A stretch of 59,747 nucleotides of DNA, filler included. It is 5 parts of 5 records of this genome, joined end to end, with 100 filler letters (N's around TTAATTAATTAA, not from the genome) between each part and the next. Parts side by side here need not be neighbours in the genome. Positions count along the whole stretch, not along the records: positions 27,373 to 47,532 come from SRR31156797_1625; 4 more parts are not named here. One strand, written 5' to 3'. Position numbers and translations under genes: made by a program. This document shows, piece after piece, positions 19,568 through 52,888 of this stretch. A model generated the notes under the pieces. It did not search any database, was not told the origin of the DNA, and saw only the letters and a program-made list of their open reading frames with translations. The number at the start of each line of letters is the position of its first letter. Positions within the stretch are counted from its first letter, which is position 1.

Positions 19568-19667
19568 NNNNNNNNNNNNNNNNNNNNNNNNNNNNNNNNN
19601 NNNNNNNNNNNTTAATTAATTAANNNNNNNNNNNNNNNNNNNNNNNNNNNNNNNNNNNNNNNNNNNN
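19568..19667. other. Artificial contig linker
   Basis: N-run, TTAATTAATTAA (stops in all six frames), N-run; composition changes across it. Confidence 0.98.
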
Positions 19668-27272: not shown

Positions 27273-27372
27273 NNNNNNNNNNNNNNNNNNNNNNNNNNNN
27301 NNNNNNNNNNNNNNNNTTAATTAATTAANNNNNNNNNNNNNNNNNNNNNNNNNNNNNNNNNNNNNNNNNNNN
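27273..27372. other. Artificial contig linker
   Basis: N-run, TTAATTAATTAA, N-run. Confidence 0.98.
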
Positions 27373-27401
27373 GGTCATCGGTTCGACTCCGATATGCTCC
27401 A
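27373..27401 (+). tRNA. 3' end of tRNA-Ala (T-arm and acceptor strand); left att site
   Basis: ATCGG-TTCGACT-CCGAT T-arm followed by ATGCTCC-A, consistent with an Ala acceptor stem containing U70; partial because of the contig edge. Confidence 0.85.
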
Positions 27402-30513: not shown

Positions 30514-30600
30514 TTACACCATTTCAGCCTGTTTAAGCACGGTTTCGGTGGTGAGTTTTTGCATGTCGGGCGGATAACCGTATTTGCGAAAAAGGCGTTT
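30514..30600 (-). pseudogene. Orphan copy of the hsdR 3' end
   Basis: Translates KRLFRKYGYPPDMQKLTTETVLKQAEMV*, versus native HsdR KRLLRKYGYPPDMQKLATETVLKQAVMIADEMV*. Confidence 0.9.
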
Positions 30601-31275: not shown

Positions 31276-34200
31276 TTAAACCATCTCATCCGCAATCATC
31301 ACTGCCTGTTTCAGCACGGTTTCGGTCGCGAGCTTCTGCATATCGGGCGGGTAGCCGTATTTGCGGAGCAGCCGTTTTACAGCCACTTTCAGTTTAGCCC
31401 GCACGCTTTCTTTTATCGTCCAATCTATGGAGGCGTTCTTTTTTACTGTTTCGGATAAAACAACTGCCAATTCCCGCAACCTGTCCTGCTGCATCAGTTC
31501 GCGTGCGCTGTCGTTGTTGGCCACGGCTGTGTAAAAGGCGTATTCATACTCCGAAAGCCCCATACTTTTAGCCTCGCTGTCTATCTCCACGATGTGCTTA
31601 CTCAGTTTTATCAGTTCATCCATCACCTCTGCTGCCGTCAGGATTTTGTTGTGATACTTCTTTATCGAGTTTTCCAGCATCTCCATCAGGCTTTTGCTTT
31701 TTACCAGATTCTTTTTTGAGCGTGACTTTATTTCATCGTTGAGCAGCTTTTTCAACACTTCCAGGGCCACATTTTTATGCTCCATCCCTTTTAGTTCAAG
31801 CAAAAATTCCTCAGACAGTATAGAAATATCTGGTTTCTTTATGCCGGCTGCATCGAATACGTCTACTACTTGTTCTGATATGAGTGCCTGGTCGATAACC
31901 TGCCGGATGGTTGTATCAATGTCCACCCCGTTTTTACCTTCGCTTGTGGCCTCAAATTTTACCAGCCTGGCTTTTACAGCCTGGAAAAACGAGACTTCCT
32001 CCTTCACATCCATGGCCTGTTCATGCGGGATGGCGATAGCAAATGCTTTTGACAGGGCTGTGACTTCGTTGATAAAACGTTTTTTGCCATCGTCGATGCT
32101 CAGTATGTGTTCCTCGGCACGAAGAATCAGGGACAACTTTTCGGATGTGCCGGCCTGGAAATAATCTTCATAAGGTAAATCATGAAATAGGTTTGAAACG
32201 ACTTCCAATTTTTCCTGCATAAGTTGTACGGCCTGCTCCTGGGCAATGGCCGGATCGCCTTTACCACCCGAATCTGAATAGAACGACAGGGCTTTTTTCA
32301 GGTCGGATGCGATGCCGAGATAGTCAACCACCAACCCGCCGGGTTTATCCTTGTAAACCCGATTTACACGCGCAATGGCCTGCATCAGGTTGTGTCCCTG
32401 CATGGGTTTGTCGATGTACATGGTGTGCAGGCACGGCACATCAAAACCTGTAAGCCACATATCCCGCACAATCACCAGTTTGAGTTCATCATCCGGGTCT
32501 TTCATTCGGTCGGCAAGGGTTTTGCGTTGCTCTTTGGTGGTGTGGTGTTTGGCAATTTTCGATCCCTCAGAGGATGAAGCGGTCATCACCACCTTTATCG
32601 CGCCTTTGTTCAGTTCATCTGAATGCCACTCTGGCCGCAGATTAATTATTTCATCGTACAGGTCAGCAGCTATCCTTCGCGACATGGCCACGATCAAACC
32701 TTTGCCTTCGAAAACCTCCTGGCGTTGCCCGAAATGTGTAATGATGTCTTTTGCAACCCGCTTAACCCGGTTTTCACTTCCAACAAGTGCTTCTAATTGT
32801 GTCCACTTTGCTTTGGCTTTCTGTGTTTGGTCTAAATCTTCGCTTTCCAACTGCTTATCCAGGTCTTCAACCAGCTTTTTGCCTTCGTCACTGAGATTAA
32901 CCTTGGCTAACCGGCTTTCGTAGTAAATGCGCACGGTGGCACCATCTTCAACAGCTTTGGCAATGTCATAGACATCGATGTAATTGCCGAAAACTGCCGG
33001 TGTGTTTACATCGGTTTTTTCGATCGGCGTACCTGTAAAACCAATAAAGGTTGCGCTGGGCAATGCATCGCGCAGATATTTAGCGAATCCATAAACGATC
33101 TTTTTCCCGATTACATCACCAGCATCATTTTTATCATCAATGGTCTTCGCTTTAAATCCATATTGCGTTCGGTGGGCTTCATCTGCTATCACAACAATGT
33201 TTTTACGATCAGACAGGGTTTCGTACACATTGCCATCATCGGGTTGAAATTTTTGGATTGTTGTAAAAACTACACCACCGGAAGCCACCCTAAGTTTTTC
33301 TTTCAGGTCTTCTCGGTTTGCTGCCTGTTTGGGCTCCTGTCGCAATAGTTGTGTGGATGATGCGAAAGTATCAAATAACTGGTCGTCCAGGTCGTTTCGG
33401 TCGGTAATCATCACGATGGTTGGGTTATCCATGGCCAAAACCAGTTTCCCGGTAAAAAACACCATCGACAGGGATTTGCCACTACCCTGTGTGTGCCATA
33501 CAACGCCTCCTTTACGATCTCCGGCAGGCTGCGCTTTTACACCTGGTAAGCCATAGTTTTTAGGCGATTCCGAAAGGTTTAGTAACGGGTTGTTATCGTG
33601 TTGTTGATAGTTACTTGCCCGCAATGCAGATTCGATGGCTCGGTTAACAGCATAATATTGGTGGTAAGCAGCCAGCTTTTTTACCGTTTTTATTGTGACC
33701 ACACCTGTTTCCAGGTCTTCGGTTTTGGATTTTTCAAAAACAATGAAATGCCTGATTAAGTCCAGGAGCGTTTTTTTATTGAGCATCCCATTGGCAACTG
33801 TTTCAAGCTGCCCGATTAAGTTTGAGGCTTCAGCCTGGCCATCAGCGGATTTCCAGGCCATGAACCGTGTTAAACCCGCCGAAATGGTACCGGCCTTTGC
33901 TTCCAGACCATCCGAAATAACCGAAAAGGCATTGAATGTAAATAGGTGCGGTATCGCTGCCTTGTAAGTATCAATCTGGTTAAATGCACTTTTGATGGTG
34001 GCCTTTTCATCCGCGGCGTTTTTCAACTCCATTACTACCAGGGGAAGGCCGTTGACAAAAAGAATAACGTCAGGTCGCTTATTTACACCCTGCTCAACCA
34101 CAGTAAATTGGTTGGCAACCACAAAATCGTTGTTATCCGGATTGTTGAAGTCGATGAGCCAAACCAGATCGCCGCGCTGGTGGCCGTCCTTTTGATAGCT

Positions 34201-34497
34201 TACCTTAATGCCTTCGGTTAGCATCCGGTGGAAGGTTTCGTTGTTGGTTAGTAATTCAGGCGAATGGATGCGGTTAACCTCCTTCAGGGCTTCTTCCAGT
34301 TGTTCACCCGGAAGGTTTGGGTTTATCCGGCTGACAGCATCCCTAAGCCGTTGGGATAGTATTACATCCTCGTAACTGCTGCGTTCGGGTTTCGGGCCAT
34401 CGTGAGCGATGTCGGGGCCGTGAATGTAGTGGTAGTCGTTATCCGTTAAGAGTTCGACAACCATTTGTTCTATATCTGATTCGATTAGCTTGTTCAT
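31276..34497 (-). CDS. hsdR: Type I restriction endonuclease subunit R
   Basis: RPDVILFVNGLPLVVMELK nuclease motif, HTQGSGKS, DEAHR, FTGTP, MWLTGFD, QAIARVNR. Confidence 0.97.
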   Translation of the reverse strand: MNKLIESDIEQMVVELLTDNDYHYIHGPDIAHDGPKPERSSYEDVILSQRLRDAVSRINPNLPGEQLEEALKEVNRIHSPELLTNNETFHRMLTEGIKVSYQKDGHQRGDLVWLIDFNNPDNNDFVVANQFTVVEQGVNKRPDVILFVNGLPLVVMELKNAADEKATIKSAFNQIDTYKAAIPHLFTFNAFSVISDGLEAKAGTISAGLTRFMAWKSADGQAEASNLIGQLETVANGMLNKKTLLDLIRHFIVFEKSKTEDLETGVVTIKTVKKLAAYHQYYAVNRAIESALRASNYQQHDNNPLLNLSESPKNYGLPGVKAQPAGDRKGGVVWHTQGSGKSLSMVFFTGKLVLAMDNPTIVMITDRNDLDDQLFDTFASSTQLLRQEPKQAANREDLKEKLRVASGGVVFTTIQKFQPDDGNVYETLSDRKNIVVIADEAHRTQYGFKAKTIDDKNDAGDVIGKKIVYGFAKYLRDALPSATFIGFTGTPIEKTDVNTPAVFGNYIDVYDIAKAVEDGATVRIYYESRLAKVNLSDEGKKLVEDLDKQLESEDLDQTQKAKAKWTQLEALVGSENRVKRVAKDIITHFGQRQEVFEGKGLIVAMSRRIAADLYDEIINLRPEWHSDELNKGAIKVVMTASSSEGSKIAKHHTTKEQRKTLADRMKDPDDELKLVIVRDMWLTGFDVPCLHTMYIDKPMQGHNLMQAIARVNRVYKDKPGGLVVDYLGIASDLKKALSFYSDSGGKGDPAIAQEQAVQLMQEKLEVVSNLFHDLPYEDYFQAGTSEKLSLILRAEEHILSIDDGKKRFINEVTALSKAFAIAIPHEQAMDVKEEVSFFQAVKARLVKFEATSEGKNGVDIDTTIRQVIDQALISEQVVDVFDAAGIKKPDISILSEEFLLELKGMEHKNVALEVLKKLLNDEIKSRSKKNLVKSKSLMEMLENSIKKYHNKILTAAEVMDELIKLSKHIVEIDSEAKSMGLSEYEYAFYTAVANNDSARELMQQDRLRELAVVLSETVKKNASIDWTIKESVRAKLKVAVKRLLRKYGYPPDMQKLATETVLKQAVMIADEMV

Positions 34498-34565: not shown

Positions 34566-35435
34566 CTACAAAAACGACTTAATTCCGTTCCATAATGATA
34601 GTTTTTTCTGGTATGGTATAGCTGCATTTGCCGAGCTTGTTGACGGTAAACTCAATAATTTAACCCCATTGATGCTCCCGAAATGCTTTCCAAATAGCTT
34701 TGCGGCTTCTTTTCCGTTAAATGCAATGGCTTTTATGGTGTTGTTTTTTGTAATAAAGGCTTCCAGACCGTTTGGCACAGCATCTTTTATGTCTGCATCC
34801 AGGCTTCCTTCTCTAAAACACGACTGACAAACATCCCAAACAGCAATTCCACCATCAAGCAACATCTTTTTACGTTTTTCATAATTTACAGGAATCGGTT
34901 CGCCTAATAATTCTCCTATAAGTTTCCAGAATAGGTTGAGTGAATTGGCGTAGTACTGTTGCTTTTTCAGGGATTCATTACCGGGCATTGTTCCTAATAT
35001 AAGAAATTTACTTTTTTTGTCAACAATCGGGTCGAACCCAACGATTTTATTCTCAATATCGGTTGGGTCTGGTTCAACAGGATGCTGATTTTGTGAAAAA
35101 AGCCCACTACTTTTCCTTTTTGGTGGGGCCGCAAAGCCCAATTTGCCAACTTTTTTAGCCACTCTTTCTCGTTTAGGCAAACCATCCGGCTGTGCGCCGC
35201 TCCAAGAAATGTCTATCCGGTTGCCATGATGGATTGCTTTAAAGCTAATACTGTCTTTATGGCCTACCTTTTTGCCATCAAAGGTGTACGATTCGATGAA
35301 GTCCTTGCTTTCATGATCAATGTTTACAATTAGCGTGTCGCCATCAGTAACCTTCTTTGTGTCGATTTTGTAGGGTGACGATTCGGAAGCTCTGGTTTTA
35401 GTACGAATGGTTCGGTTTCTGATTATTTCTGCCAT
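34566..35435 (-). CDS. DNA-deoxyinosine glycosylase (UDG family 6-like) with an extra N-terminal domain
   Basis: C-terminal part has LILGTMPG.ESL..QQYYAN..N.FW, GIAVWDV, GSLDADI, FNGK and LPSTSSAN; the first ~125 aa are unassigned. Confidence 0.85.
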   Translation of the reverse strand: MAEIIRNRTIRTKTRASESSPYKIDTKKVTDGDTLIVNIDHESKDFIESYTFDGKKVGHKDSISFKAIHHGNRIDISWSGAQPDGLPKRERVAKKVGKLGFAAPPKRKSSGLFSQNQHPVEPDPTDIENKIVGFDPIVDKKSKFLILGTMPGNESLKKQQYYANSLNLFWKLIGELLGEPIPVNYEKRKKMLLDGGIAVWDVCQSCFREGSLDADIKDAVPNGLEAFITKNNTIKAIAFNGKEAAKLFGKHFGSINGVKLLSLPSTSSANAAIPYQKKLSLWNGIKSFL

Positions 35436-35470
35436 ATGTTTAGGAATTATTGGTTATTGATTTTTAGATT

Positions 35471-35860
35471 TTACAAGCGATGATGTTTTGCGATATCGCC
35501 AAACTGCCTACGTTTCATTATTTTGGCTTGCTCGTGTGAGTAAAATGGATCCACTTCGGCCCTGAAATCCTTTTTTTTAAACCGATCCGGGTCTTTCGCT
35601 TCAATGCGTTTGCGGTTGGTGTATTTAAACCAGGCGCATTCAAACTCTGTTACCGGTTGCGTTTCCATGTGGCTCACCTGCACAAAATGATCCTGGTCTT
35701 CGTTAAGCGGTTCAAGATCGCCGGATGTAAGGGCGCTAAACCAATGTCCCCACTTTTCGAGCAATTCGATTTCGTCTGCTGAAAAGATGGCTCTGTTGCA
35801 ATCAATAGTGAATGAGCCTTTTTTCTTGATGTGGTCCCGATGATCCTGCCTGGTGCTCAT
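35471..35860 (-). CDS. DUF413 / MaoP (YifE)-like protein
   Basis: FS..E..LLE.WG....AL..G.LEP....Q.HFV.V.....P.TE.E.AW.KY pattern recalled for DUF413. Confidence 0.72.
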   Translation of the reverse strand: MSTRQDHRDHIKKKGSFTIDCNRAIFSADEIELLEKWGHWFSALTSGDLEPLNEDQDHFVQVSHMETQPVTEFECAWFKYTNRKRIEAKDPDRFKKKDFRAEVDPFYSHEQAKIMKRRQFGDIAKHHRL

Positions 35861-35866
35861 ATTGGG

Positions 35867-36526
35867 TTATGATTTTGATGATTTTGTAAATGCGCTGTAT
35901 TTATCCAGCCACAGTTTATAAAATTTGATGCGGGTGGCCGGTAGGTGGGGATAAGGAAAAATGTTCCGTTGCAGCAGGTTTTCTGTTTTGCTGCAAAACC
36001 TGAATTGCCCGGTTCCGGATTTGGTTTTTTTATCGTAACCCCAATAATGGTTTACTTGCGCCTGATCTCCGGCCAGCAATTTAAGTACCGGCAGGCCGAG
36101 CGTAATGATCTTTGCTTTTGGATAGGTTGCAAGTTCACCGCGTAGCAGTTCCAGATTGGGCTGCAAGTGAGCTTTAAGCACGTCAAAAGTTTGTTCCGGG
36201 GGTACACTGTAAAAGTATTTAAAAACGTTTGTAGCGTAGATTTCATCAAACGGGATTTCGAGCTGTTGGCAAACTCGTTGTAGGTACTTGCGTAAGCTGC
36301 CGGGTTTATCCAGGTTGAGGGTGTATTCAATTTTGTTTCGGGTGGCTTCGTTTTGTATGGTGGGGTCTTGCCCGATGATGATCAGCGAAACTTTGTTGGT
36401 GGTGCGGTAGGGTAATACCGGAAGCAGGGAATCATCAATTGAGTTAGCCGCATCATCAGCGGTTTGTTTTAGTTTATCCCTGATTGCCAACGATTGCATA
36501 AATACATCCGTAGTTTTCATAGGCAC
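35867..36526 (-). CDS. Divergent uracil-DNA glycosylase superfamily protein
   Basis: IIIGQDP motif 1, IYATNVFK, IITLG and C-terminal FPYPH motif 2. Confidence 0.75.
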   Translation of the reverse strand: MPMKTTDVFMQSLAIRDKLKQTADDAANSIDDSLLPVLPYRTTNKVSLIIIGQDPTIQNEATRNKIEYTLNLDKPGSLRKYLQRVCQQLEIPFDEIYATNVFKYFYSVPPEQTFDVLKAHLQPNLELLRGELATYPKAKIITLGLPVLKLLAGDQAQVNHYWGYDKKTKSGTGQFRFCSKTENLLQRNIFPYPHLPATRIKFYKLWLDKYSAFTKSSKS

Positions 36527-36578: not shown

Positions 36579-37001
36579 TTAATCAAATTCATCAACACTG
36601 CCCACATATTTTTCAACTCCGATTATTCTATCAATTTCCTCTTCTAAATTCATTAAAGTATCTGGCCATTCGTCGGGCTCTTGCAGATAATGATCGATGG
36701 TCCGTTTCATGCCATCCTGCATTTCCACTGTGGACACACACGAGGGCATATCGGTCATAAAAACTTCAGGTTCTTGCGCTTGCAGGGCAAAGTAAGCACA
36801 TTTCAATAGTTGTTGATTAAGTTCGGTAAGGGCTTGCTTGCTGATATACCAAATATGCCTGCCTGTTTGTTCAACAAAATAATAGCCAGTGTATGTTACT
36901 CGTCCTGAATGATGGATGCTAACCTTGTAAACAGGACATGTGCCGTAGCATGGGGTTCGTTCGAGCTTTATTGCATTAAATTTTACCGGCATTTCTATCA
37001 T
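36579..37001 (-). CDS. DUF6438-like protein
   Basis: IKLERTPCYGTCPVYKVSI...G.V.Y.G and TDMPS motifs, recalled for DUF6438. Confidence 0.72.
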   Translation of the reverse strand: MIEMPVKFNAIKLERTPCYGTCPVYKVSIHHSGRVTYTGYYFVEQTGRHIWYISKQALTELNQQLLKCAYFALQAQEPEVFMTDMPSCVSTVEMQDGMKRTIDHYLQEPDEWPDTLMNLEEEIDRIIGVEKYVGSVDEFD

Positions 37002-37021
37002 TGCAACATTGAATTACCTTA

Positions 37022-37060
37022 TTACATTTTCACCCGCACTTCGCCACTCATCAGCTTTGG
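37022..37060 (-). repeat. Copy of the hsdS 3' end (copy C)
   Basis: Translates PKLMSGEVRVKM*; 37028-37057 is a perfect 30-bp match to 38048-38077. Confidence 0.92.
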
Positions 37061-37102
37061 GAATCATCAACCTTACATTTCTACGTTGGGTGGATGTGTT
37101 AT

Positions 37103-37501
37103 TTATTTAGCATCATACTTGTTCAGAACTCTTTTTAATTCTCCAATTCTACTCATTAAATGTGTATTCCCTTTTATATATTTTTTTATTTTCTCAAAGT
37201 CATCCTTGTTTACTATTTCTTCGCCTAAGTTTGTTTTGTTGTATTCTGATTCATCCTGAAGATATGCCGATAAAGCCAAAATACATAAATCAAAACATCG
37301 GTGCAATGGCATCTCCTCGCTTTGACGGCTCCATTTTTTACCTGTATGTCTCCATATTTTAGCTGAAATATCATTATTGTTCCATTGTGCTTTTCCAATT
37401 GATAAAGCCTTGCAATCGGAATTGTTAGCATATTTACCATCGTGTTTGTCGTAATTATCTGCCACTAAAATGGGCTTGTGCAATAGATGTTTTGGATACA
37501 T
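37103..37501 (-). CDS. DUF6530-like protein
   Basis: LLHKPI...DG.YA..SD.KALSIG.AQWN...DISAKIWRHTG.KWSRQSEEMPLHR..DL; AAGGAGG RBS upstream. Confidence 0.75.
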   Translation of the reverse strand: MYPKHLLHKPILVADNYDKHDGKYANNSDCKALSIGKAQWNNNDISAKIWRHTGKKWSRQSEEMPLHRCFDLCILALSAYLQDESEYNKTNLGEEIVNKDDFEKIKKYIKGNTHLMSRIGELKRVLNKYDAK

Positions 37502-37528
37502 TTTTAATCCTCCTTTAAAATTTGAAAT

Positions 37529-37604
37529 TTAATATTTAACTCTAACCTCCCCACTCATTAGTTTCATAAGCTGTGTATCCCGCAGTTTTTCTATGGTGCG
37601 GATT
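37529..37604 (-). repeat. Diverged copy of the hsdS 3' end (copy B)
   Basis: Translates IRTIEKLRDTQLMKLMSGEVRVKY*, versus native IRTLEKLRDTLLPKLMSGEVRVKL*; in frame, with many third-position differences. Confidence 0.92.
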
Positions 37605-37624
37605 TATTTTTGATAAATTAATTC

Positions 37625-38029
37625 TCATTTGCCTTTATTTTTCGTCATGAAAACACGCACCCTGTCAAAATCCTGCCAATCTTTAGGTTTAAAATTTAAA
37701 TTTACATTCTCATCCTTATTTTGTAGATGGCGAAGCATGCTATTCTTCCATTCCTTTTTGATTTCATTGGAAAAGTACCCCTTTTTCATGTGGTACAATT
37801 GCTCATTAAATAATCCCAGTAGGTCATCTCTCAACACTTTTATGTTTGCGTTTTTTCCACATTGAAGTTCACGAACAATCCTTCGGTATTCAGCCGTGCA
37901 TTTATTCATAACAACCAGATTATTAGACTGTATGTTGATAATAAGGCTTCCTGCAGCTATTATGATTCCTATAGCCATAAATAGGTCAATTATCATATCA
38001 AATGTTACTGTAGCTTCCAATAATACCAT
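37625..38029 (-). CDS. Hypothetical protein with N-terminal membrane anchor
   Basis: 134 aa, one TM (LFMAIGIIIAAGSLII) and a helical soluble part; starts 12 nt after the hsdS stop. Confidence 0.65.
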   Translation of the reverse strand: MVLLEATVTFDMIIDLFMAIGIIIAAGSLIINIQSNNLVVMNKCTAEYRRIVRELQCGKNANIKVLRDDLLGLFNEQLYHMKKGYFSNEIKKEWKNSMLRHLQNKDENVNLNFKPKDWQDFDRVRVFMTKNKGK

Positions 38030-38041
38030 AGCTCTATTTTT

Positions 38042-39235
38042 TTATAATTTCACCCGCACTTCGCCACTCATCAGCTTGGGCAGCAGCGTATCCCGGAGCT
38101 TTTCGAGTGTGCGGATTTGGGTATTGTTCAATTCTTGTTTTTCATTGTAAGTTTTCGCTATTTCGTTGAATCGTTGAATTTTATCCATTGAAGGTAGGTT
38201 AAACTTAACCCATTCAACACCATCCTTTGATAGCATGTTAACTGTACTTCCATTTGTAGCTCCGGCTATTTGTTCATGTACATCTTTGGTTTTTAATAAA
38301 TGGAATAGGAAGTAACTTGATAACTGTGATTTGATTTTTAGGCGATAAATGTGTTGTGAAAAAATACCAAAATCACCAAATGTCTCTGGAACAATTGCAG
38401 GATAGCCGATTAATAAATGTTCATGTCCCTGTTCAGTATTGGTTATTATTACGTCACCAGGAAATACTTTATGTCTTTCTTTAAATTCTCCTTTGTAGTA
38501 TTTGATGCCAGCTTCTTTATAACCACCGCCTTCATAAATTGAATTGAGGTTGTGCATTGGCATGCCTCCATGACAGTCTGTAAGCCCACTACCCTTATAG
38601 CTAAGCCCTCTTTGAACTTCAACAAATTCATCAAGTTGATGCCATTCATTAACATTTTTCGCTTCCTCAACAAACCACTGCCTAAAAAGCGTTTCGGCCA
38701 TTTGTTCCAGGGTTTTGTTTTGGCGGTGGAGCAGGTCTATTTTGTCGTCGAGGCTGCTGAGCACGGCGGCAATGGCGCGTTGCTCGGGGAGGGAGGGGAG
38801 TATGAATTGATGCTGTTTTACCACATCAGTTTGCACTCTTTGCCTTCCTGAACTACCCGTCATTGATTTAATTGCAGAAAAGCGAATTGTTGGAGAAATT
38901 GCTAAATAATATACAAAATGCTTATCTGAAACATTCTCTTTTTCACGAAGAACGATAAATTCAGTTGAACCAAAACCGATTTCATCTTCATCTAAAATAT
39001 CTACAAATGAAGTTTTTCCGTTTTCAAGGCTTGGTGTAATACGAGCCATTAATGTATCACCATTTTTAAACTTAACTCCACCTTTGTATTCCTCTATTGA
39101 ATAACTTGGAATTCTTTTCGTAAATGGCTGAATTATTTCCATCGGGATTTTCTTTGCGATCTTTCCCTTTGGAATTCTTTCAGTAGGATTAATATCCGCA
39201 AAGTCCCCTAATTTATAACCTTTCCACTCACTCAT
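38042..39235 (-). CDS. hsdS: Type I restriction-modification specificity subunit
   Basis: Two TRDs separated by the conserved LPSLPEQRAIAAVLSSLDDKI...LFRQWF spacer; C-terminal LEKLRDTLLPKLMSGEVRV. Confidence 0.96.
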   Translation of the reverse strand: MSEWKGYKLGDFADINPTERIPKGKIAKKIPMEIIQPFTKRIPSYSIEEYKGGVKFKNGDTLMARITPSLENGKTSFVDILDEDEIGFGSTEFIVLREKENVSDKHFVYYLAISPTIRFSAIKSMTGSSGRQRVQTDVVKQHQFILPSLPEQRAIAAVLSSLDDKIDLLHRQNKTLEQMAETLFRQWFVEEAKNVNEWHQLDEFVEVQRGLSYKGSGLTDCHGGMPMHNLNSIYEGGGYKEAGIKYYKGEFKERHKVFPGDVIITNTEQGHEHLLIGYPAIVPETFGDFGIFSQHIYRLKIKSQLSSYFLFHLLKTKDVHEQIAGATNGSTVNMLSKDGVEWVKFNLPSMDKIQRFNEIAKTYNEKQELNNTQIRTLEKLRDTLLPKLMSGEVRVKL

Positions 39236-39482
39236 TAATCTCTATCCTTAGTAAATCATCGAGTGCAATACCGCCATCATAAGGCATATCGGCTGCACCT
39301 TTAAGCATTTGAATTCTGATGCCGATTCGGTCATTTTTAATTGCAGGTGTGTCATTAAAGGTAAATTCAACCCTCCCTTTATATTTAATTGGTTTTCCAT
39401 TCTCCATAATTGAAAATACAACAGAAGTATTTTTATCAATCTGGTTTTCTGTTATAAACTGCATGATTTCATTTCTATTCAT
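39228..39482 (-). CDS. Hypothetical 84-aa protein inserted between hsdM and hsdS
   Basis: Its ATG overlaps the hsdM stop and its own stop overlaps the hsdS ATG; it ends LRIEINE*, like HsdM (LKIEINE*). Confidence 0.65.
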
Positions 39483-41022
39483 TGATCTCAATTTTTAAAA
39501 AATTCGTGGTAATGCGTTTATTGAGCTCGGCTTCTTCTTTGAGTTGGGCTTCAAACTCGGCTTTAAGCTGCGTAAATCTATCGTTAAAATCAAAATCATC
39601 CTCTTCTTCGGCCAGGCCAACGTAACGTCCTGGGGTCAATACATAGTCCAGTTCCTGAACCCTTTGGATGGGCGCCGAGTTGCAAAAGCCTTTCACATCC
39701 TCGTATTCACCATCGGGATTGCGCCAGTTGTGGTAGGTTTCGGTTATCGTTTGTATGTCTTCATCCGAAAGTTCGCGTGTACGGCGGTTGATCAGGTGGC
39801 CCATGTTACGGGCGTCAATAAACAGAATTTCTCCGCTGCGGTCGCGGTATTTGCCGTTTGTCCGGTTACGCCGCATAAACCACAGCGAAGCCGGTATTTG
39901 CGTGTTCAGGAACAGCTTTGCCGGCAGGTTCACAACGCAGTCAATCAGGTTTTCATCAATCAGTGCTTTGCGGATTTCGCCTTCACCACTGCTCTTAGAA
40001 GTTAAAGCACCCTTTGCGAGCACAAACCCGGCCTGTCCGGTTGGTGCCATGTGATACAGGAAATGCTGTATCCAGGCGTAGTTGGCGTTTCCCGTAGGGG
40101 GCACACCGTGTTTCCAGCGGCCATCCTTGCGTAGTAAATCACCGCTCCAGTCGCTAACGTTAAAAGGCGGATTGGCAATAATGAAATCGGCTTTCAAGTC
40201 TTTGTGGGCATCGTTCAGGAACGATCCTTCGTTGTTCCACCTCACCTGCGAACTGTCTATGCCACGAATGGCCAGGTTCATTTTGCACAGCCGCCAGGTG
40301 GTTTGGTTGCTTTCCTGCCCGTAAATGGATATGTCGTTGATTCGCCCCTGGTGTTCCAGTACAAACTTCTCAGACTGGACAAACATACCACCGGAACCAC
40401 AACAGGGGTCGAACACCCTGCCCTGGTATGGTTCAAGCATACGAACCAGCAGTTCAACCACACTGCGTGGCGTGTAGAACTGTCCACCCTTTTTGCCTTC
40501 GGCCAGGGCAAATTCACCTAAAAAATATTCAAAAACGTGCCCAAGCACATCCGCACTGCGGGATTTGGTATCTCCCAAGGCAATGTTTCCTATCAGGTCG
40601 ATCAATTCACCCAGGCTGGTGGGATCGAGGTTTTGCCGTGCATACACTTTGGGTAGCACACCTTTTAATGATGGGTTTTCCCGCTCTATCACATCCATGG
40701 CATCGTCAACAGTCTTGCCGATGGTGGGCTGTTTGGCGTGGCTCATCAGGAACTTCCAGCGTGCTGATGGCGGCACAAAAAATACGTTTTCGGCCTTGTA
40801 TTCGTCTTTGTCTTCAGGGTCGGCACCTTCGTATTCGCCTTCACCGGAAAGCAGCTTTTCGTACAGTTCCAGGAACGCATCGCTGATGTATTTGAGGAAG
40901 ATCAGGCCGAGTACCACATGTTTGTACTCCGCTGCATCTATGTTTTTCCGTAGTTTATCCGCTGATTTCCAGAGTTGTTTCTCCAGGGGTTCCTCTTTAG
41001 GGATTGAGGCTTTCTTTGCCAT
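39475..41022 (-). CDS. hsdM: Type I restriction-modification N6-adenine methyltransferase subunit
   Basis: [27 protein letters not shown] (motif I), NPPF (motif IV), LTPGRYVG. Confidence 0.97.
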
Positions 41023-41173: not shown

Positions 41174-41641
41174 TTAATCGATCATCTCCTCGAATTCATC
41201 CTCGATGTCGTTGCCAAGTTCGTTGTCTGGGTCTTTCTGGTTGGCAGTAATGTGTAGGTTATCTTTAATGGCCTCAAAAATGCACTGTTTAATGGTATCA
41301 TCGAATGTGGTATTCGTTAGTGGTTTGTCGATCTCCCGGAGTGTGAAATCAGCATAAATGTAGGTTAACAGTTCGATCTGAGGCTGGGTGAATTTGAGTA
41401 TTATTCCTTTGTATTCATCCGAAGAAAGCTGAATACCGGAGATGCACTGGAGTTTTTCATTTTCGGCCTTTAGCCGCTGGTTATCTTTTTCCAGTTTTTG
41501 TATTTGCTGGCTGTCCAGCAATGCGCGGTTACGCACGAACTTCGACAAGCTAATGTTTAGTTCCTGCGCTGTTTGGTTGAGTTTTGCCTTTTCGGCTGCG
41601 GTCACCTGGAAGGTGATTGTTGTTTTGTTGTTTGGTTTCAT
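41174..41641 (-). CDS. Ribbon-helix-helix (MobC/CopG-like) DNA-binding protein with coiled coil
   Basis: TITFQVTAAEKAKLNQTAQELNISLSKFVRNRAL is an RHH pattern, followed by heptads IQKLEKDNQRLKAENEKL. Confidence 0.65.
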   Translation of the reverse strand: MKPNNKTTITFQVTAAEKAKLNQTAQELNISLSKFVRNRALLDSQQIQKLEKDNQRLKAENEKLQCISGIQLSSDEYKGIILKFTQPQIELLTYIYADFTLREIDKPLTNTTFDDTIKQCIFEAIKDNLHITANQKDPDNELGNDIEDEFEEMID

Positions 41642-41783
41642 AAAATAGTTTAATGTTGGTTTATAATAGGTATTTACTATCCCGATAAGTTTTTAAATGT
41701 ATTGGTTAGTTACGTGCCCATATATAGGGCACGTACTAATTAACGCATAGCGTTTCTTGATTTGGACAACCATGATAATACAG

Positions 41784-43250
41784 TTAAGCAGCCTGATCAT
41801 CAATTACGTTATTTCGTTTTTCATGGTTTTCTGCTTCAGGCAATTTTAAATTGGGATCGTTTTGGTCTGCATCATGGGCGCGCTGATATAATTTAGCTTT
41901 CCCCTTTTGTTTTTGGATGATATAGCCTTCATTAACGTAATAATCCCTAAAAAGACGTGCTTTAGAGTTCCCAAAGGAATCATAGTAAGTTGCAGACAGA
42001 TCACAAATAGCTTTATCCATTTCTGTACTGTTTAATTCTGTGTGACGCGAAAAAATTTCACAAACAGCATTTTTATGATCCATAGCTGCATAGTCGTCTG
42101 GGTCGATTCGACGGGTTGGGCTACCTTCTATTTCACATAGTTCCGGTAGACCATTCTCATTTATTCTAAAAGCAAAAGGGGGAAATTCGATATTTCTACC
42201 GAATTCAGTTTTCACTAAGGAGACCTCCCTATTTGATGAGCTTTTACTTATGTTGATGGTGGATTCGGCTTTGTTAACGATTTCTGAACCAAGGTGGCCA
42301 CGAGCATTTTGGTCATTTTTATTTTGGTGTAATACAACAATGATGCTGATCTCATAATCATGAGTCCAGGTCATTAGCCGATCTACTATCATTGTAGCTT
42401 GGTCAGGGCTGTTTATATCAGTAAGTAAATCCCTAATACCATCAATCACAATCAGGCCAAGATTTGGTGTGTTCTGGATTGCGTATTCAATTAATTTCAG
42501 TCGATTTTCGGTACTTTTGTTTCGCAATTGGAAAACACGTAGGTTTTTTCTTTCGCCCGCTTGCCTTACAATCCGTTCATAAGTTTTATAGACATGGTAG
42601 TTAGATTGTTCAGTGTCAAAATGTAATACCTTTTTTTTACCATGAGGTAGTTCCCCCTTCATATTTAATGTTTCTTGTCCAAGAGCAGCCGCGATAGCAG
42701 CAGTAAGCGCAAATGTTTTCCTTGATTTTGCTTTTCCGATTATCGCGATAAAGTTCCCCAGTGTGGCGACAATTTGTCCGTCGATCCTTAGTGCTACCTG
42801 TGGTGCGCTTGGCGGATTATTATAGTCAAGTTCGGCTTTATTAAGTTCAGACTCTATTGAATCATAAGTATTTATACTGTTACGCATGTTTTGTTTTGAG
42901 GGGATGGACTGGTCATTGATGTTTCGGATGCCAAACTGGTGCTCTCGCTTATAAGCGTTATTAATGCAGCGACGAATTTCTGAGTCTCCAAAGCCTGGTT
43001 GCTGGAATTTAAGTAGTTCAGTTTCGGTTTCATGCTTGGGAATGCCGTATCGATTGCAAACTGAAGCATAGCGGTGAATGTAGTTGTTGCGATTATTGTT
43101 TTTAAATGGTATTTGCATCTTCTGGTGGAATGCATCAAAGATTTGTTTGTCACCAGTTGAATTTTGTTTTTTGTTTTTCTGCCATTTAACTGGTAGGTTC
43201 GATGGTAGTTTGTGAGCTATTTTTTTTCGTAGTTCTTTTGATTTCGCCAT
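41784..43250 (-). CDS. PriCT-like domain plus AAA/RepA-type (SF4-like) helicase
   Basis: RNNYIHRYA...GI...EI...INNAYK (primase C-terminal-like), Walker A GKAKSRKT, FDTEQS, IVIDGIRDL, VLHQNK, RGHLGSE. Confidence 0.8.
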   Translation of the reverse strand: MAKSKELRKKIAHKLPSNLPVKWQKNKKQNSTGDKQIFDAFHQKMQIPFKNNNRNNYIHRYASVCNRYGIPKHETETELLKFQQPGFGDSEIRRCINNAYKREHQFGIRNINDQSIPSKQNMRNSINTYDSIESELNKAELDYNNPPSAPQVALRIDGQIVATLGNFIAIIGKAKSRKTFALTAAIAAALGQETLNMKGELPHGKKKVLHFDTEQSNYHVYKTYERIVRQAGERKNLRVFQLRNKSTENRLKLIEYAIQNTPNLGLIVIDGIRDLLTDINSPDQATMIVDRLMTWTHDYEISIIVVLHQNKNDQNARGHLGSEIVNKAESTINISKSSSNREVSLVKTEFGRNIEFPPFAFRINENGLPELCEIEGSPTRRIDPDDYAAMDHKNAVCEIFSRHTELNSTEMDKAICDLSATYYDSFGNSKARLFRDYYVNEGYIIQKQKGKAKLYQRAHDADQNDPNLKLPEAENHEKRNNVIDDQAA

Positions 43251-43960
43251 AAAGAAAAAAGTTTAGGGTTGATAAAACAATTTGGATCATGGCATAACCA
43301 GCAGGCGCGGGCTATGTCACTGGTTGCAACATCAAGATAGTTGTAAAAGTCGGGATGTTCTTCCTCGATATATAGGGTTACTAATTGATAGAGTTCGTTG
43401 TGGTCTGTAACTGCCGTATCAGGATTATATTTGGCATCGGTGTCGGACAGGATTGCCTTCAAACCATCTCCGCCGGGGGAAGTAAACATTAGTTGCGGGT
43501 CGAGCATTTCATCGCGTGCCAGGGTTTGTTTAACCTGCTCCGGGTCGGGCACATGATCGAAGTCTAACACGATATATGAACTGCGCCAGCGCAGGGCATG
43601 GGACTTGCGTTCACTAAATACTCCGCTGACCGTGAAGAAGTCAAAGCTGTTCTTCTTTAGATGCGAATTAGGGTTATTTCTGTAATCGGCTGTTGTTTTT
43701 GCAAAATAATCTCCTTTGATTACCTCATAGAGCTGCATGATGTCTATTTGGCGATAAGGTATTAGATTGGTTATCGGTGCTCTATAGTAGCTGAATTTGG
43801 GTAAATGAAGTTCATAGTTCCCTTCATATATATCGAACAATAACTTATTATTTACCGGGTAGTTAAACCTTCTTGACAGTTCATCTATCGTGTATACGCT
43901 GTGGTAAATTGCCCTAATCTTACTGTGAATTTGACATGCAATTTCAATTGGTATCTTCAT
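43217..43960 (-). CDS. BT4734/VirE-N family primase-polymerase-like protein
   Basis: FTVSGVF..R, IVLDFDHV, FTSPGGDGLK, D....DIARACWLCHDP. Confidence 0.82.
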   Translation of the reverse strand: MKIPIEIACQIHSKIRAIYHSVYTIDELSRRFNYPVNNKLLFDIYEGNYELHLPKFSYYRAPITNLIPYRQIDIMQLYEVIKGDYFAKTTADYRNNPNSHLKKNSFDFFTVSGVFSERKSHALRWRSSYIVLDFDHVPDPEQVKQTLARDEMLDPQLMFTSPGGDGLKAILSDTDAKYNPDTAVTDHNELYQLVTLYIEEEHPDFYNYLDVATSDIARACWLCHDPNCFINPKLFSLWRNQKNYEKK

Positions 43961-44005
43961 GGTACATAGGTGTTATACCAGGGCATAAAGCCCTGGTTGA
44001 TAATT

Positions 44006-44341
44006 TTAATATTCTTCTGTTGTTAGACTTTCAGCCTGTATAATTGTAAGGTTTTTCACTAATAACACAATATTACGATTCAGTAATTTAGTATCATCAT
44101 AATTCAATATTAAAGCCGTTGATAGGGTAGAGATCAAAGCAACCATATCATCATCACTAAGATAAATGTAATCCGCATTGGCGTAGCCGGATTGGTTCTT
44201 ATCTACAAGTTTATAGAGCATCTCAGCAAAAAGTTGTGAAAAGTTAATGACGCGTAAGTCATTATAAATATTTAGTAACCATGAAAGTGTAAAAATGGTC
44301 TGTTCAAATAATGCGTTGCTTATTATATATTGGTTTCTCAT
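44006..44341 (-). CDS. Hypothetical protein
   Basis: 111-aa ORF between excisionase and primase, co-oriented with the backbone. Confidence 0.5.
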   Translation of the reverse strand: MRNQYIISNALFEQTIFTLSWLLNIYNDLRVINFSQLFAEMLYKLVDKNQSGYANADYIYLSDDDMVALISTLSTALILNYDDTKLLNRNIVLLVKNLTIIQAESLTTEEY

Positions 44342-44566
44342 TGGAAAAAAAATTTTATGTTGTCGAAAATTTATGGTTTTTGAGTTACATTTTTATGCAA
44401 TTTAAAAAATAGGTTATCAGGTGGCCCTCTTTGAATGTTTTTGATGGATTGCTTCAGTTTTAACAAACAGCATGGCATTTGAAAGCGTTGGTTTAGAAGA
44501 ATCTGCTTGACAGCATTCAGATAGTTGTACCGTGAGTAAAGTACCTCAAAATTTACTTTCATACTG

Positions 44567-44830
44567 TTACTTCTTTGTTTTGACCCACTCAAGTAATTCA
44601 TTCTCAAAAAAATACAACTTTTTACCTCGGCGGGTGTGTGGTATTCGTTTTTTGGATGTCAAACCATAAATGGTGTGTTTGGATTTGTGCAGAAACTGTG
44701 CAGCCTCATCAATTGTCATGGGCTTCTGTGATGTCTGTTGATTGTTCTGAATCATTAGTTGTGTTTGCTTGACCAGTGATTCAAGATCGTTGAACCGCTG
44801 GTCGATTTGTAAGAAAGGGTTTGTGCTCAT
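44567..44830 (-). CDS. Excisionase-like helix-turn-helix protein
   Basis: MSTNPF start at 44830; PMTIDEAAQFLHKSKHTIYGLTSKKRIPH.RRGKKLYF...EL..WV; TATATTTG -7 box at 44864-44871. Confidence 0.88.
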   Translation of the reverse strand: MSTNPFLQIDQRFNDLESLVKQTQLMIQNNQQTSQKPMTIDEAAQFLHKSKHTIYGLTSKKRIPHTRRGKKLYFFENELLEWVKTKK

Positions 44831-44966
44831 TTTTTTAATTTTAATTAATAAATAAATGAGCGGCAAATATAGTGAGCGCTTAGGCTGAAGGCCGTACCAT
44901 AAATACCCACAACCCAAAAGAAATTCTGGGTAATTTTGGGTATAATATTACATAAAGTGCGCTGTT

Positions 44967-45962
44967 TTATTGGGATATTATATCTTGAAAAATATTTATA
45001 TAATTTTTGTTTATTATGGATGAGCTTGGTTGAAACAATTTTTCATGCAAATTACCTTTTGTGTAATTAAAGGTATTGTTGTAACGCGTCAAGTATTCTT
45101 TTGCTTTTAAGCCAGCACGGATATGCTCTGAATCAATTAGGACAAAATGGAGGGATGCGATGCTTGAAATTGATTGGATATAGTCAAAATTTTTACCTGA
45201 TTGGGAGCTGTAATTTTTTAGAAACGGTTGATCATTGTTTAGATTTATTGCATTTAGCAGGTTATAAATAAAATTCTCATAGTTTAGTTTTTTTGATACC
45301 CAAATTTCTTTCAGATTCATTTCTGAAGAATCGCTCATATCTTGATTATTATTTTCGTATAGGTAATCCAGGCCTGACACACCATCACTTTTCTCCAGTT
45401 CGATTCTGTTGGGATGCTGTTCGAAAACACCAAGGTAAACATCAACTTTTTTAGCTAATACAATAATGTCTATTTTATGTATAATACTTACCTCAATGAG
45501 TTCGGCAATAATTTTATCCAGTAAATCAATCATCATCAAAAGGTAAAGGCCTGAAAGCTGGGTAGTGTTAAGTTTAACATCTTTTAGGGGGAGTTTTTGA
45601 AAGATGAAATCGGGGTTTTTTATTTTGTCTTGCTGTGGATGATTACGGGCCAGAAGCAAGTAGTATTTTTGCTTGTTTTCCGTAGTATAAAACGCTTTTT
45701 TTTGGCCTCCAATCAACCAGGTAGCATCGCGTAATAATCGCAGATATTCAAGTATTATAGCATGTTTTATTTCAAGCGAACCAGCTTCAATGATGTTTAC
45801 GCTCAATTCATTTTTAAAAGGAACGAAATATTTATTGCTGAAAGAACGTGAATCATACACTTTTTCAAATACTTTCAAAACGTTCTGATCTTCATTTGTT
45901 GATCTTTTGATAAGACCCATCATCTTATGTAGTTTCCCAAATGCATTTAGTTTCATAGCCAA
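44967..45962 (-). CDS. Hypothetical protein co-transcribed with the integrase
   Basis: 331-aa low-GC ORF starting 3 nt after the integrase stop; no family recognised. Confidence 0.6.
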   Translation of the reverse strand: MAMKLNAFGKLHKMMGLIKRSTNEDQNVLKVFEKVYDSRSFSNKYFVPFKNELSVNIIEAGSLEIKHAIILEYLRLLRDATWLIGGQKKAFYTTENKQKYYLLLARNHPQQDKIKNPDFIFQKLPLKDVKLNTTQLSGLYLLMMIDLLDKIIAELIEVSIIHKIDIIVLAKKVDVYLGVFEQHPNRIELEKSDGVSGLDYLYENNNQDMSDSSEMNLKEIWVSKKLNYENFIYNLLNAINLNNDQPFLKNYSSQSGKNFDYIQSISSIASLHFVLIDSEHIRAGLKAKEYLTRYNNTFNYTKGNLHEKLFQPSSSIINKNYINIFQDIISQ

Positions 45963-45965
45963 TTG

Positions 45966-47339
45966 TTAAATCAAGTTCGTAATCATATTTTGAATTTCTG
46001 TATGTTCATCATCGTCAAACTGCCCTAAATAATGGATGGTGGTTTTTAAATCTGCATGGCTTAATTGCTTTTTTATATAGCTGACGGGCACACCCTTTTT
46101 ATCGGCAATGCTTGCCCATGAGTGTCTTGCAGTCATAACCGTAACCGGTTTTTTAATGCCCATCTTATCCGCTATTCTTTGTGTGTAATTACCGGTGGTT
46201 TTTGTTGTGGTAGATAGTTTTCGTATTCGTTCTTTTTCATTCTTCGTATCGTTAAATACAGGCAGTACATAGTTGTATTCGGCTTTGTCTTTGTTTCCGA
46301 TTCGGTCAATGATTTCTTTTATCTGTTTTGAATACACGATTTTTACGGGTTCAGGCTCGCTGCTGCTGTTGTGAGTCTTAGCGCGGTAAAATGTGATAAA
46401 GCCGTCTTTAATATCCCGGTATTTTAATGACAACAGGTCTTTGCTGTTGCAGCCACACAAGTAAAAATGCAGCAGCCATATGTCCAGATAATAGCGTTCT
46501 ATTTCACTGACGGTTTTATAGTTAACAAGTTTTTTAACTTCCTTTTCGTTGAGGGCAACGTAACTGTTTCTTTTTTGGGCAATTATTTTGAACTTCTTTT
46601 CACCGAAAGGGTATTCAAGGCCAGGAAGGGATTTACCGTATTCATTAAAAATTGCCCGGATGTATTTGGCGTAAACTGTAAATGTGGCCGGGGAGTTTAA
46701 TTTCGGCTTTACTGGTGCATATTTATTAGTCAATTGTTTTCTGGAAGACGGATCATTTTTAACGTACCGGTTTAAATGCCATGACTGAAAACGTCTTAAA
46801 AACTGAGGAGTTATTTCGTAAAAAGAAATAACCCGCTTGCCCCTGAATTCAATCAAGCTGTTTAAGCAGGCACTGTACCCGGCTGCAGTTCTGATGCGGT
46901 CGCTTTTTTGTAATTCATCTATGTGCATTTCAAATGCCTGAACAATATTCTCCGGGTTATCATCCTGTTTGTTTTCTCCCTGGAAATATTTTTCTTTAAA
47001 GGCGCTAAAATTAAACACCTCCATCCGCGAAATAAATTGATCAACTTCCTGTGCTTCCTCATTCAAAACCTGCCACAGTCGTTTATAGATTCCATCACGC
47101 ATTGCATTTTTGGCTTTCTCGTAATCCGTTTTCTTCATTGCAAAATCCTCACGCCCATCGTACTGGAAATCCTGAAAGTCCAGGTCGGACAACCGTTCGT
47201 TCATTTTGTGTTTTGATATTCCGTAGTACCGGGTTTTACCCTGATAAGTTATCCTTATTTTTACTGGGTAATAATTATTTGCTTTAGGCTGCCGTTTTTC
47301 AAGTACTATTGAAACCGAAGGTGCTTTGCGTGCGCTCAT
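45966..47339 (-). CDS. Tyrosine recombinase/integrase (Bacteroidota type)
   Basis: Arm-binding N-terminus (YPVKIRITY...YY), SAM-like core-binding region, catalytic R.KT, ARHSWA and LSH....TT.HYL; adjacent to the att site. Confidence 0.93.
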   Translation of the reverse strand: MSARKAPSVSIVLEKRQPKANNYYPVKIRITYQGKTRYYGISKHKMNERLSDLDFQDFQYDGREDFAMKKTDYEKAKNAMRDGIYKRLWQVLNEEAQEVDQFISRMEVFNFSAFKEKYFQGENKQDDNPENIVQAFEMHIDELQKSDRIRTAAGYSACLNSLIEFRGKRVISFYEITPQFLRRFQSWHLNRYVKNDPSSRKQLTNKYAPVKPKLNSPATFTVYAKYIRAIFNEYGKSLPGLEYPFGEKKFKIIAQKRNSYVALNEKEVKKLVNYKTVSEIERYYLDIWLLHFYLCGCNSKDLLSLKYRDIKDGFITFYRAKTHNSSSEPEPVKIVYSKQIKEIIDRIGNKDKAEYNYVLPVFNDTKNEKERIRKLSTTTKTTGNYTQRIADKMGIKKPVTVMTARHSWASIADKKGVPVSYIKKQLSHADLKTTIHYLGQFDDDEHTEIQNMITNLI

Positions 47340-47502: not shown

Positions 47503-47532
47503 ACTGGCAGTCAAGAGGTCATCGGTTCGACT
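47503..47532 (+). repeat. Right att site: duplicated 3' half of tRNA-Ala(GGC) starting at the anticodon loop
   Basis: A-CTGGCAG-TCAAG-AGGTC-ATCGGTTCGACT gives the loop with GGC anticodon, the 3' anticodon stem and the T-arm. The upstream sequence cannot form the 5' tRNA half. Confidence 0.88.
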
Positions 47533-47632
47533 NNNNNNNNNNNNNNNNNNNNNNNNNNNNNNNNNNNNNNNNNNNNTTAATTAATTAANNNNNNNNNNNN
47601 NNNNNNNNNNNNNNNNNNNNNNNNNNNNNNNN
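47533..47632. other. Artificial contig linker
   Basis: N-run, TTAATTAATTAA, N-run. Confidence 0.98.
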
Positions 47633-52788: not shown

Positions 52789-52888
52789 NNNNNNNNNNNN
52801 NNNNNNNNNNNNNNNNNNNNNNNNNNNNNNNNTTAATTAATTAANNNNNNNNNNNNNNNNNNNNNNNNNNNNNNNNNNNNNNNNNNNN
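52789..52888. other. Artificial contig linker
   Basis: N-run, TTAATTAATTAA, N-run; strong GC jump across it. Confidence 0.98.

Follow-up and report, generated by a model that had tools for sequence, protein, structure and literature searches.

UDG-fold glycosylase genes and a DUF413/MaoP-like gene embedded in a type I restriction-modification operon as candidates for base-excision defense

The stretch of DNA analyzed here (the window, 59,747 nt in total) contains a type I restriction-modification (R-M) operon that is encoded entirely on the minus strand in the order hsdM, an 87-aa open reading frame (ORF), hsdS, six further ORFs and hsdR, and its type is evident from the Pfam domains of HsdM, HsdS and HsdR that are all present in this one operon. 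Three of the genes inserted between hsdS and hsdR are the subject of this study. The first, UDG-A (35867-36526), encodes a 219-aa divergent protein of the uracil-DNA glycosylase (UDG) superfamily; it is followed by a gene for a small DUF413/MaoP-like protein of 129 aa (35471-35860; PF04219, E = 7.4e-14) and by UDG-B (34566-35435), whose 289-aa product matches the DNA-deoxyinosine glycosylase family TIGR04274 on residues 133-282. Only 6 nt (35861-35866) separate UDG-A from the DUF413-like gene and 35 nt (35436-35470) separate the latter from UDG-B, which in turn ends 68 nt ahead of hsdR. A previous sequence-only reading of this DNA had described these genes as a tight block of a GQDP-type glycosylase, a DUF413/MaoP-like protein and a family-6-like deoxyinosine glycosylase. 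Its coordinates and both gaps proved exact, the motif and family calls are upheld by profile matches and the UDG fold is borne out for both glycosylases. The three genes are indeed located between hsdS and hsdR; note that the interval in fact holds six ORFs.

UDG-A scores 28.7 bits against PF03167 (cut-off 24.3; E = 1.6e-6) and shows the UDG fold, and the conserved residues of its motif IIIGQDPT and of the further motifs ATN and HxP coincide in position with motif A, the strand-2 asparagine and motif B. As its homologs begin at the third residue of the window's protein, translation probably begins at the ATG at 36520. We considered and rejected an assignment to two established families. Family 1 UNG enzymes are recognized by the motifs GQDPYH and HPSPLS and by close similarity to UNG, and the motifs of UDG-A differ from those of family 1. 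Family 4 UDG and UdgX are marked by four cysteines that bind a 4Fe-4S cluster; UDG-A has no NCBIfam family-4 match and contains two cysteines in the window's protein, and with C86 as the single invariant cysteine in an alignment of 21 sequences such a four-cysteine cluster is impossible. Judged by the chemistry of family 1, the combination of the GQDP aspartate, an asparagine after strand 2 and a histidine in motif B would make the protein an active glycosylase whose pocket accepts a base of the uracil or thymine type, and the small threonine replacing tyrosine may make space for a 5-substituent. When the family profiles of UDG-A and UDG-B were aligned with hhalign, the probability was 0.2 and motif A alone was aligned, so that the two are not recent duplicates. 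Sequence searches of the PDB gave no meaningful match for UDG-A, for its profile or for the profile of the DUF413-like family, and the BFVD collection returned distant UDG-fold matches only, with a TM score of about 0.5, for UDG-A. A tblastn search with UDG-A in plasmid and phage collections had no match. Prediction of a three-chain complex of UDG-A, UDG-B and the DUF413-like protein ended with a score of 0.01, to be read as 'no answer'.

The genomic surroundings of UDG-A were studied in 68 loci obtained from a scan of species-representative genomes (loci are designated by L numbers), against which the proteins of the window were compared by tblastn at E<=1e-5; Pfam was run on the 220 remaining ORFs that lie at most two positions from a UDG-A homolog. 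Homologs are found in Bacteroidota, Ignavibacteriota, Chloroflexota and other phyla, and in a sample of 400 further genomes, drawn from the class of a Legionellaceae metagenome-assembled genome, the profile had no true match. In 11 of the 68 loci the homolog is located between hsdM or hsdS and hsdR (L001-L007, L009, L016, L018, L043), and in four more it adjoins hsd genes (L010, L017, L045, L064). In L004, UDG-A is the sole gene embedded in a minimal hsdM-hsdS-UDG-A-hsdR operon whose gaps measure about 10 nt, and both here and in L007 it stands directly before hsdR, at distances of 10-21 nt. A clear defense gene is present within two ORFs of the homolog in 26/68 loci. Besides type I hsd genes, the neighbors include GmrSD (L005, L012, L035, L036, L053), McrBC (L016, L017, L043), Mrr (L055, L060), PglZ/BrxL of a BREX system (L053), AbiE (L040), ABC-3C (L042), a type ISP enzyme (L051), a type IIG-like Eco57I gene (L044) and OLD-like genes (L002, L018, L047). 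About ten loci are ambiguous, with toxin-antitoxin genes, SNase, AAA+PLD, AAA+WYL or tubulin pairs. In the protein tree the window groups with L001-L007 and L009 in one clade, and L010, the McrBC-linked clade and the Mrr, BREX and ABC-3C cases are placed outside it. Defense-linked homologs occur in several clades of the tree and accompany hsd genes of no fewer than four unrelated lineages; those of L016/L043/L064, L018 and L045 are distant relatives of the window's hsd genes or belong to another type.

Some individual loci deserve mention in their own right. At L045:4655-8060 the UDG-A homolog is overlapped by a 138-aa ASCH-domain gene, and an EcoEI-type hsdR follows. At L047:10001-12020 a UDG-A homolog, a FRG-domain gene and a second, weakly family-4-like UDG stand in a row, with an AAA_15/AAA_21 gene adjoining, and this is another instance of a middle gene flanked by two glycosylases. 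At L014:8143-11892 and L015:6319-10086, tubulin/FtsZ-family genes are found on both sides of the UDG-A homolog.

UDG-B could be assigned with higher scores, at 35.4 bits against PF03167 (cut-off 24.3) and 178.1 bits against TIGR04274 (cut-off 80), covering model positions 1-150 of 150, and a solved relative (2l3f) shares 35% identity with an rmsd of 1.7. By score, fold and conserved residues its catalytic domain (residues 133-282, 34590-35039) belongs to the family-6 hypoxanthine-DNA glycosylases (HDG), and excision of hypoxanthine is predicted for it. This domain is preceded by an all-beta domain of 85 residues (1-85, 35181-35435) that is conserved in an alignment of 23 sequences, comprises six strands with pLDDT values mostly >85 and is connected to the catalytic part through a disordered linker; a search of the ESM Atlas with it gave no usable match. 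The two-domain architecture is rare. HDG matches were present in 16/301 Bacteroidota genomes and the two-domain form made up one of the 19 matches, while searches with the N-terminal domain found it in 3/401 and 1/401 genomes, the two-domain form accounting for 1/401 in each sample. Note that the domain also exists as stand-alone ORFs of 85 aa beside putAbiC (abortive infection) genes, at L112:2472-2729 and L113:9992-10249.

All four available contexts place the two-domain HDG beside defense genes: the type I R-M operon of the window, Mrr in L110, PIN and Wadjet JetABCD genes in L111, where the copy has one internal stop, and in L115 a type II-like R-M arrangement of an HTH gene, a 304-aa ORF of unknown function and an N6-methylase, followed by the HDG. 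As a control we analyzed 18 loci of short, one-domain HDGs (158-257 aa) from 16 Bacteroidota genomes, scanning 72 neighbors, and 0/18 had a restriction, Abi, BREX or similar gene among them. Instead, the short form resides in recurrent synteny with RecQ-DinB_2-PEP carboxylase, with AraC-DUF4142-DUF6526, with S9 peptidase-AIM24 or with LigA, RpoN and aminoacyl-tRNA synthetases. Fisher tests against this control yielded p = 0.001 for UDG-A (26/68 vs 0/18) and p = 0.0001 for the two-domain HDG (4/4 vs 0/18), values that overstate independence, as the loci are related. Next to the two-domain HDG of L110 there is also a 269-aa ORF (L110:7419-8228) with weak similarity to HhH N-glycosylase/DNA lyases (E 2.8e-6, below cut-off), and it may be a second glycosylase of the defense type.

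The DUF413-like protein reaches 51.9 bits against PF04219 (cut-off 25). It was rejected as an ortholog of YifE, being under all NCBIfam equivalog cut-offs (best NF008252, 45.9 vs 135 bits), and with a match in 1/401 Bacteroidota genomes it is not a core gene. A word-indexed search retrieved six close relatives, and the wider family extends to 487 representative clusters at E<=1e-3. Some members of this family join the domain to RNase H, HRDC, ADP-ribosylglycohydrolase, TnsA-like, DnaA_C or DksA/TraR domains or carry it in tandem repeats, which suggests a nucleic-acid- or protein-binding module. In three of four readable contexts the gene adjoins type I R-M genes. Besides the window these are L109, with hsdM, a GIY-YIG gene, hsdS, a 177-aa ORF, the DUF413-like gene, an IS200-like ORF and hsdR, and L071, where a fused hsdM-S gene, itself preceded by hsdR, ends 19 nt ahead of it; in L070 it is found beside TetR and efflux genes. 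The L109 operon has no glycosylase, its HsdM and HsdR are 76-77% identical to those of the window, its GIY-YIG gene takes the place of the window's 87-aa ORF, and it comes from the same genome as L050. The DUF413-like gene is found in hsd operons that lack a glycosylase, and it appears to travel with type I R-M and not with the glycosylases.

Taken family by family, the co-localization with defense genes that the sequence-only reading had proposed to compute is there, in that each of the three recurs beside such genes and the housekeeping control does not. The block as a unit is not conserved. The closest homologs of the three genes, at 80%, 77% and 70% identity, seemingly lie on one other contig, so that the full block probably recurs once.

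The remaining genes of the operon show how the interval between hsdS and hsdR was filled. The outer genes are hsdM (39475-41022; 515 aa, N6_Mtase with E = 7.6e-110 and HsdM_N), the 87-aa ORF (39228-39491) without a Pfam or NCBIfam match, hsdS (38042-39235; 397 aa, two stretches of Methylase_S, E = 3.3e-29) and hsdR (31276-34497; 1073 aa, HSDR_N, SWI2_SNF2 and T1RH-like_C, E = 1.2e-126). Downstream of hsdS, a 134-aa ORF with a hydrophobic N-terminus (37625-38029), for which Pfam, NCBIfam and PADLOC hold no match, opens a low-GC cassette whose second gene encodes a 132-aa DUF6530 protein (37103-37501; PF20140, E = 3.1e-35); a 140-aa DUF6438 protein (36579-37001; PF20033, E = 2e-30) then precedes UDG-A. 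Between the DUF6530 and DUF6438 genes, 18 nt upstream of the latter, lies a relic of the hsdS 3' end (37019-37060), a 42-nt direct repeat that is 90% identical to 38039-38080 and translates to the C-terminal peptide of HsdS and its stop. By the position of this relic, the 134-aa ORF and the DUF6530 gene form a cassette apart from the segment that runs from DUF6438 to UDG-B, and the GC content is 0.34 (0.337 over 37001-38000) in the former vs 0.43 in the latter. A relic of the hsdR 3' end (30520-30600), an 81-nt direct repeat 81% identical to 31297-31377, is likewise found on the minus strand 777 nt downstream of the real end of hsdR. A 118-aa ORF that belongs to no family separates the two, and the relic suggests that cassettes were exchanged at this end as well. 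Since UDG-A usually stands directly before hsdR in relatives, the DUF413-like gene and UDG-B look like later insertions. The cassettes that occupy the gap in related operons are overwhelmingly defense genes, namely GmrSD, Abi_C, SIR2/DUF4917, McrBC and OLD-like genes, and tblastn found no relative of the DUF6438, DUF6530 or 134-aa proteins in the 68 UDG-A loci. From hsdS to hsdR the minus strand has no intrinsic-terminator-like site. A scan for sigma-70 promoters gave 15 sites vs a mean of 22.6 in shuffled sequence, fewer than expected by chance, and as the host is probably Bacteroidota-like it says little about promoters here.

The window consists of five contigs joined by spacers (19568-19667, 27273-27372, 47533-47632, 52789-52888), each composed of 44 N, TTAATTAATTAA and another 44 N. 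For this reason synteny across the spacers is meaningless, and ORFs or repeats that touch them are artifacts; a 118-nt direct repeat in three copies, considered as att sites or island boundaries, was rejected as it corresponds to these N/TTAATTAATTAA contig spacers. The operon resides on a single 20,160-nt contig (27373-47532), and its setting on a mobile island, as described earlier, is supported. The same contig bears mobility genes on the minus strand at 41174-47339, identified by Pfam as NikA-like, AAA_25, BT4734-like_N, HTH_17 and a tyrosine integrase (45966-47339); the HTH_17 gene is excisionase-like, the BT4734-like and AAA_25 genes primase-like. Start (27373-27388) and end (47517-47532) of the contig share an exact overlap of 16 nt whose sequence resembles the T-arm portion of tRNA genes. 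The contig may thus have a circular form, or the overlap may be the att repeats of a mobile element that is integrated in a tRNA gene or bounded by repeats. ARAGORN found no complete tRNA across the joined ends of this contig, and the window as a whole contains no tRNAs and no Rfam families. Elsewhere in the window, the last contig (52889-59747) has a GC content of 0.52-0.62 vs 0.31-0.51 in the other parts, the rise at about 53 kb being the start of this contig, and carries Maf/MptE-like, FemAB-like and amidohydrolase genes; it may stem from a different organism in the bin. Of arginyl-tRNA synthetase, a 189-aa ORF at 18970-19539 has the DALR anticodon-binding domain and nothing else; it stops at a contig edge, and its incompleteness is due to the assembly and not to truncation of the gene.

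We favor, with a probability of roughly 0.5, the reading that UDG-A and UDG-B are two stand-alone base-excision defense enzymes of the Brig kind which, together with a small R-M-associated protein, were gathered in a recombination-prone gap. The interval between hsdS and hsdR would have collected separate cassettes, among them UDG-A, the DUF413-like gene and UDG-B. Each glycosylase would act as an independent single-protein enzyme that flips out a base absent from host DNA when it meets this base in invading DNA and cleaves the glycosidic bond, and the abasic sites would then block replication or be nicked. In this way base excision could cover phages with modified DNA that escape HsdR. From its motifs the target of UDG-A would be a pyrimidine of the uracil or thymine type. 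UDG-B would retain the family-6 purine pocket of the hypoxanthine type, with the additional N-terminal domain marking the defense-linked form, and the DUF413-like protein might assist the R-M enzymes as a small accessory that binds DNA or other proteins. Gene content, folds, motifs and genomic associations are established here, and enzymatic activity, substrates, an anti-phage effect and any cooperation with R-M are what we infer. Of the original idea that the block backs up the R-M system against non-canonical bases in phage DNA, the association with defense stands for each family separately, and the notion of the block as one system does not.

Several observations weigh against this reading. 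The three genes do not form a conserved block, as neither the DUF413-like gene nor UDG-B has a relative in any of the 68 UDG-A loci at the threshold given above. About nine UDG-A contexts (L013, L019, L022, L028, L033, L048, L050, L052, L054) are housekeeping-like, and the clade of the window, L001-L007 and L009 may reflect a single inheritance together with the operon, so that the Fisher tests count related loci as independent. A check against PADLOC-DB v2.0.0, a library that dates from 2023, matched 0 families for all ten proteins scanned, including the six inserted ORFs, though this release is older than Brig1. Samples are small, with four contexts each for UDG-B and the DUF413-like gene, and neighboring ORFs were taken from a simple ORF picker and not from a gene caller. 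Finally, the catalytic domain of UDG-B retains essentially every residue that is conserved in the 18 short HDGs. As these are the conserved residues of housekeeping enzymes, its chemistry may be plain hypoxanthine repair, and an activity on ordinary deamination damage only, which the sequence-only reading had named as a finding that would speak against defense, is possible for UDG-B.

This last point leads to an alternative that we regard as somewhat unlikely but as a serious rival, in which the two enzymes are a deamination-repair kit, UDG-A removing uracil and UDG-B hypoxanthine, that mends the DNA of the element itself, for example when it has been transferred as a single strand, or counters the damage of a deaminase toxin, and does not attack phages. 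Uracil and hypoxanthine are the two common products of deamination, of cytosine and adenine respectively; UDG-B is above the equivalog cut-off for DNA-deoxyinosine glycosylase with its housekeeping residues in place, and UDG-A combines a family-1-like GQDP motif with asparagine and histidine partners. A conflict-linked repair enzyme, endonuclease V, has been described as acting against a deaminase toxin and a uracil phage (PMC13648612) and provides a published parallel. The genomic surroundings are harder to reconcile with repair, as non-defense synteny is found for 18/18 short HDGs and for 0/4 of the two-domain form, and homologs of UDG-A repeatedly adjoin type IV enzymes, whose target is modified DNA; plain repair genes would be expected to show neither. 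The relics of the hsdS and hsdR 3' ends that flank inserted segments bring up a different explanation, namely that the gap is a recombination hot spot for any cassette and the three genes are unrelated hitch-hikers without a defense role or a mutual link. The GC content of the cassettes, 0.34 vs 0.43, the variation of the embedded genes from locus to locus and the lack of a conserved block agree with it. Nevertheless, we consider it improbable, for the cassettes in the gap of relatives are overwhelmingly defense genes, UDG-A stays while its neighbors change and all three families are associated with defense outside this operon lineage. The fixed position of UDG-A just upstream of hsdR in L004 and L007, and its location inside the hsd operon in 11 loci, could in turn indicate that it is built into the type I enzyme as a subunit which, docked on HsdM-HsdS, serves as an effector of base excision or as a sensor of modified bases. 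With 53/68 homologs lacking an adjoining hsd gene and many standing beside other systems, we judge this very improbable.

Antiviral DNA glycosylases have been recognized only since 2024, and few families are known. If our favored reading of stand-alone base-excision defense is true, they are joined by a widespread UDG clade that resides by preference within type I R-M operons. It would further mean that one added domain can turn a repair enzyme, hypoxanthine-DNA glycosylase, to defense, and that the DUF413/MaoP domain has found its first functional context beyond the organization of the enterobacterial chromosome. A wider version, which we put forward tentatively and regard as doubtful, is that in Bacteroidota and their neighbors the type I R-M operons carry a base-excision arm, consisting of a pyrimidine-directed GQDPT clade and a purine-directed family-6 glycosylase redirected to invader DNA by its N-terminal domain, the latter being the first enzyme of the UDG superfamily to serve defense by targeting purines, with the DUF413 protein as an unrecognized accessory of N6-adenine R-M.

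In the literature we found no paper on UDG-fold genes in type I R-M operons, on defense-linked family-6 glycosylases or on DUF413 in R-M, though supplements may list such families. The closest known systems each share part of the picture. MaoP/YifE of E. coli, reported to have co-evolved with the Dam N6-adenine methylase (PMC5023128), has the DUF413 core in common with the window's protein, which for its part sits in an N6-adenine R-M operon; the latter differs in being far under the YifE equivalog cut-offs and in not being a core gene. The family-6 HDGs (TIGR04274, 2l3f) correspond to the catalytic domain of UDG-B and lack its 85-residue beta domain and disordered linker, and it is the rare two-domain form and not the short one that is found at defense loci. 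Modification-dependent defense embedded in type I R-M operons is described for TgvAB and under the term 'guilt by embedding' (PMC11411939; bioRxiv 10.1101/2024.01.29.577857), where the embedded genes are thought to cover phages that evade R-M. The location within the operon is the same as here, but the TgvAB-type genes are GmrSD-like nucleases, and the main text of the latter preprint mentions no glycosylase, UDG, uracil or DUF413.

With respect to mechanism the Brig enzymes, compared here through their published descriptions, are nearest; no Brig entries are among the PDB matches listed for UDG-A. Brig1 is an anti-phage glycosylase of UDG fold whose family is described as comprising 42 homologs, mostly from Actinobacteria (Nature 2024, PMC11078745), whereas UDG-A occurs in the phyla listed above. 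Brig2, an integron-borne UDG-like protein reported to target a hypermodified thymidine and to have >500 homologs including Bacteroidetes and Firmicutes (bioRxiv 10.1101/2025.10.29.685425), resembles UDG-A as a UDG-fold defense enzyme, and its pyrimidine target would fit the asparagine/histidine motif pattern. An indirect difference, drawn from a sample, is that the UDG-A profile had no true match in the 400 further genomes from the class of the Legionellaceae metagenome-assembled genome. In Brig3-BapA, a 5hmC glycosylase is described together with an ASCH glucosyl hydrolase partner (bioRxiv 10.64898/2026.02.25.707755). This pairing of a glycosylase with a small accessory gene recalls the arrangement in the window, where the small neighbor is DUF413-like instead of ASCH and goes with hsd operons, and the UDG-A homolog of L045 is likewise paired with an ASCH gene, the family of BapA. 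The location in defense islands that is typical of the Brig type is seen for UDG-A in 26/68 loci and for the two-domain HDG in 4/4, compared with 0/18 in the control.

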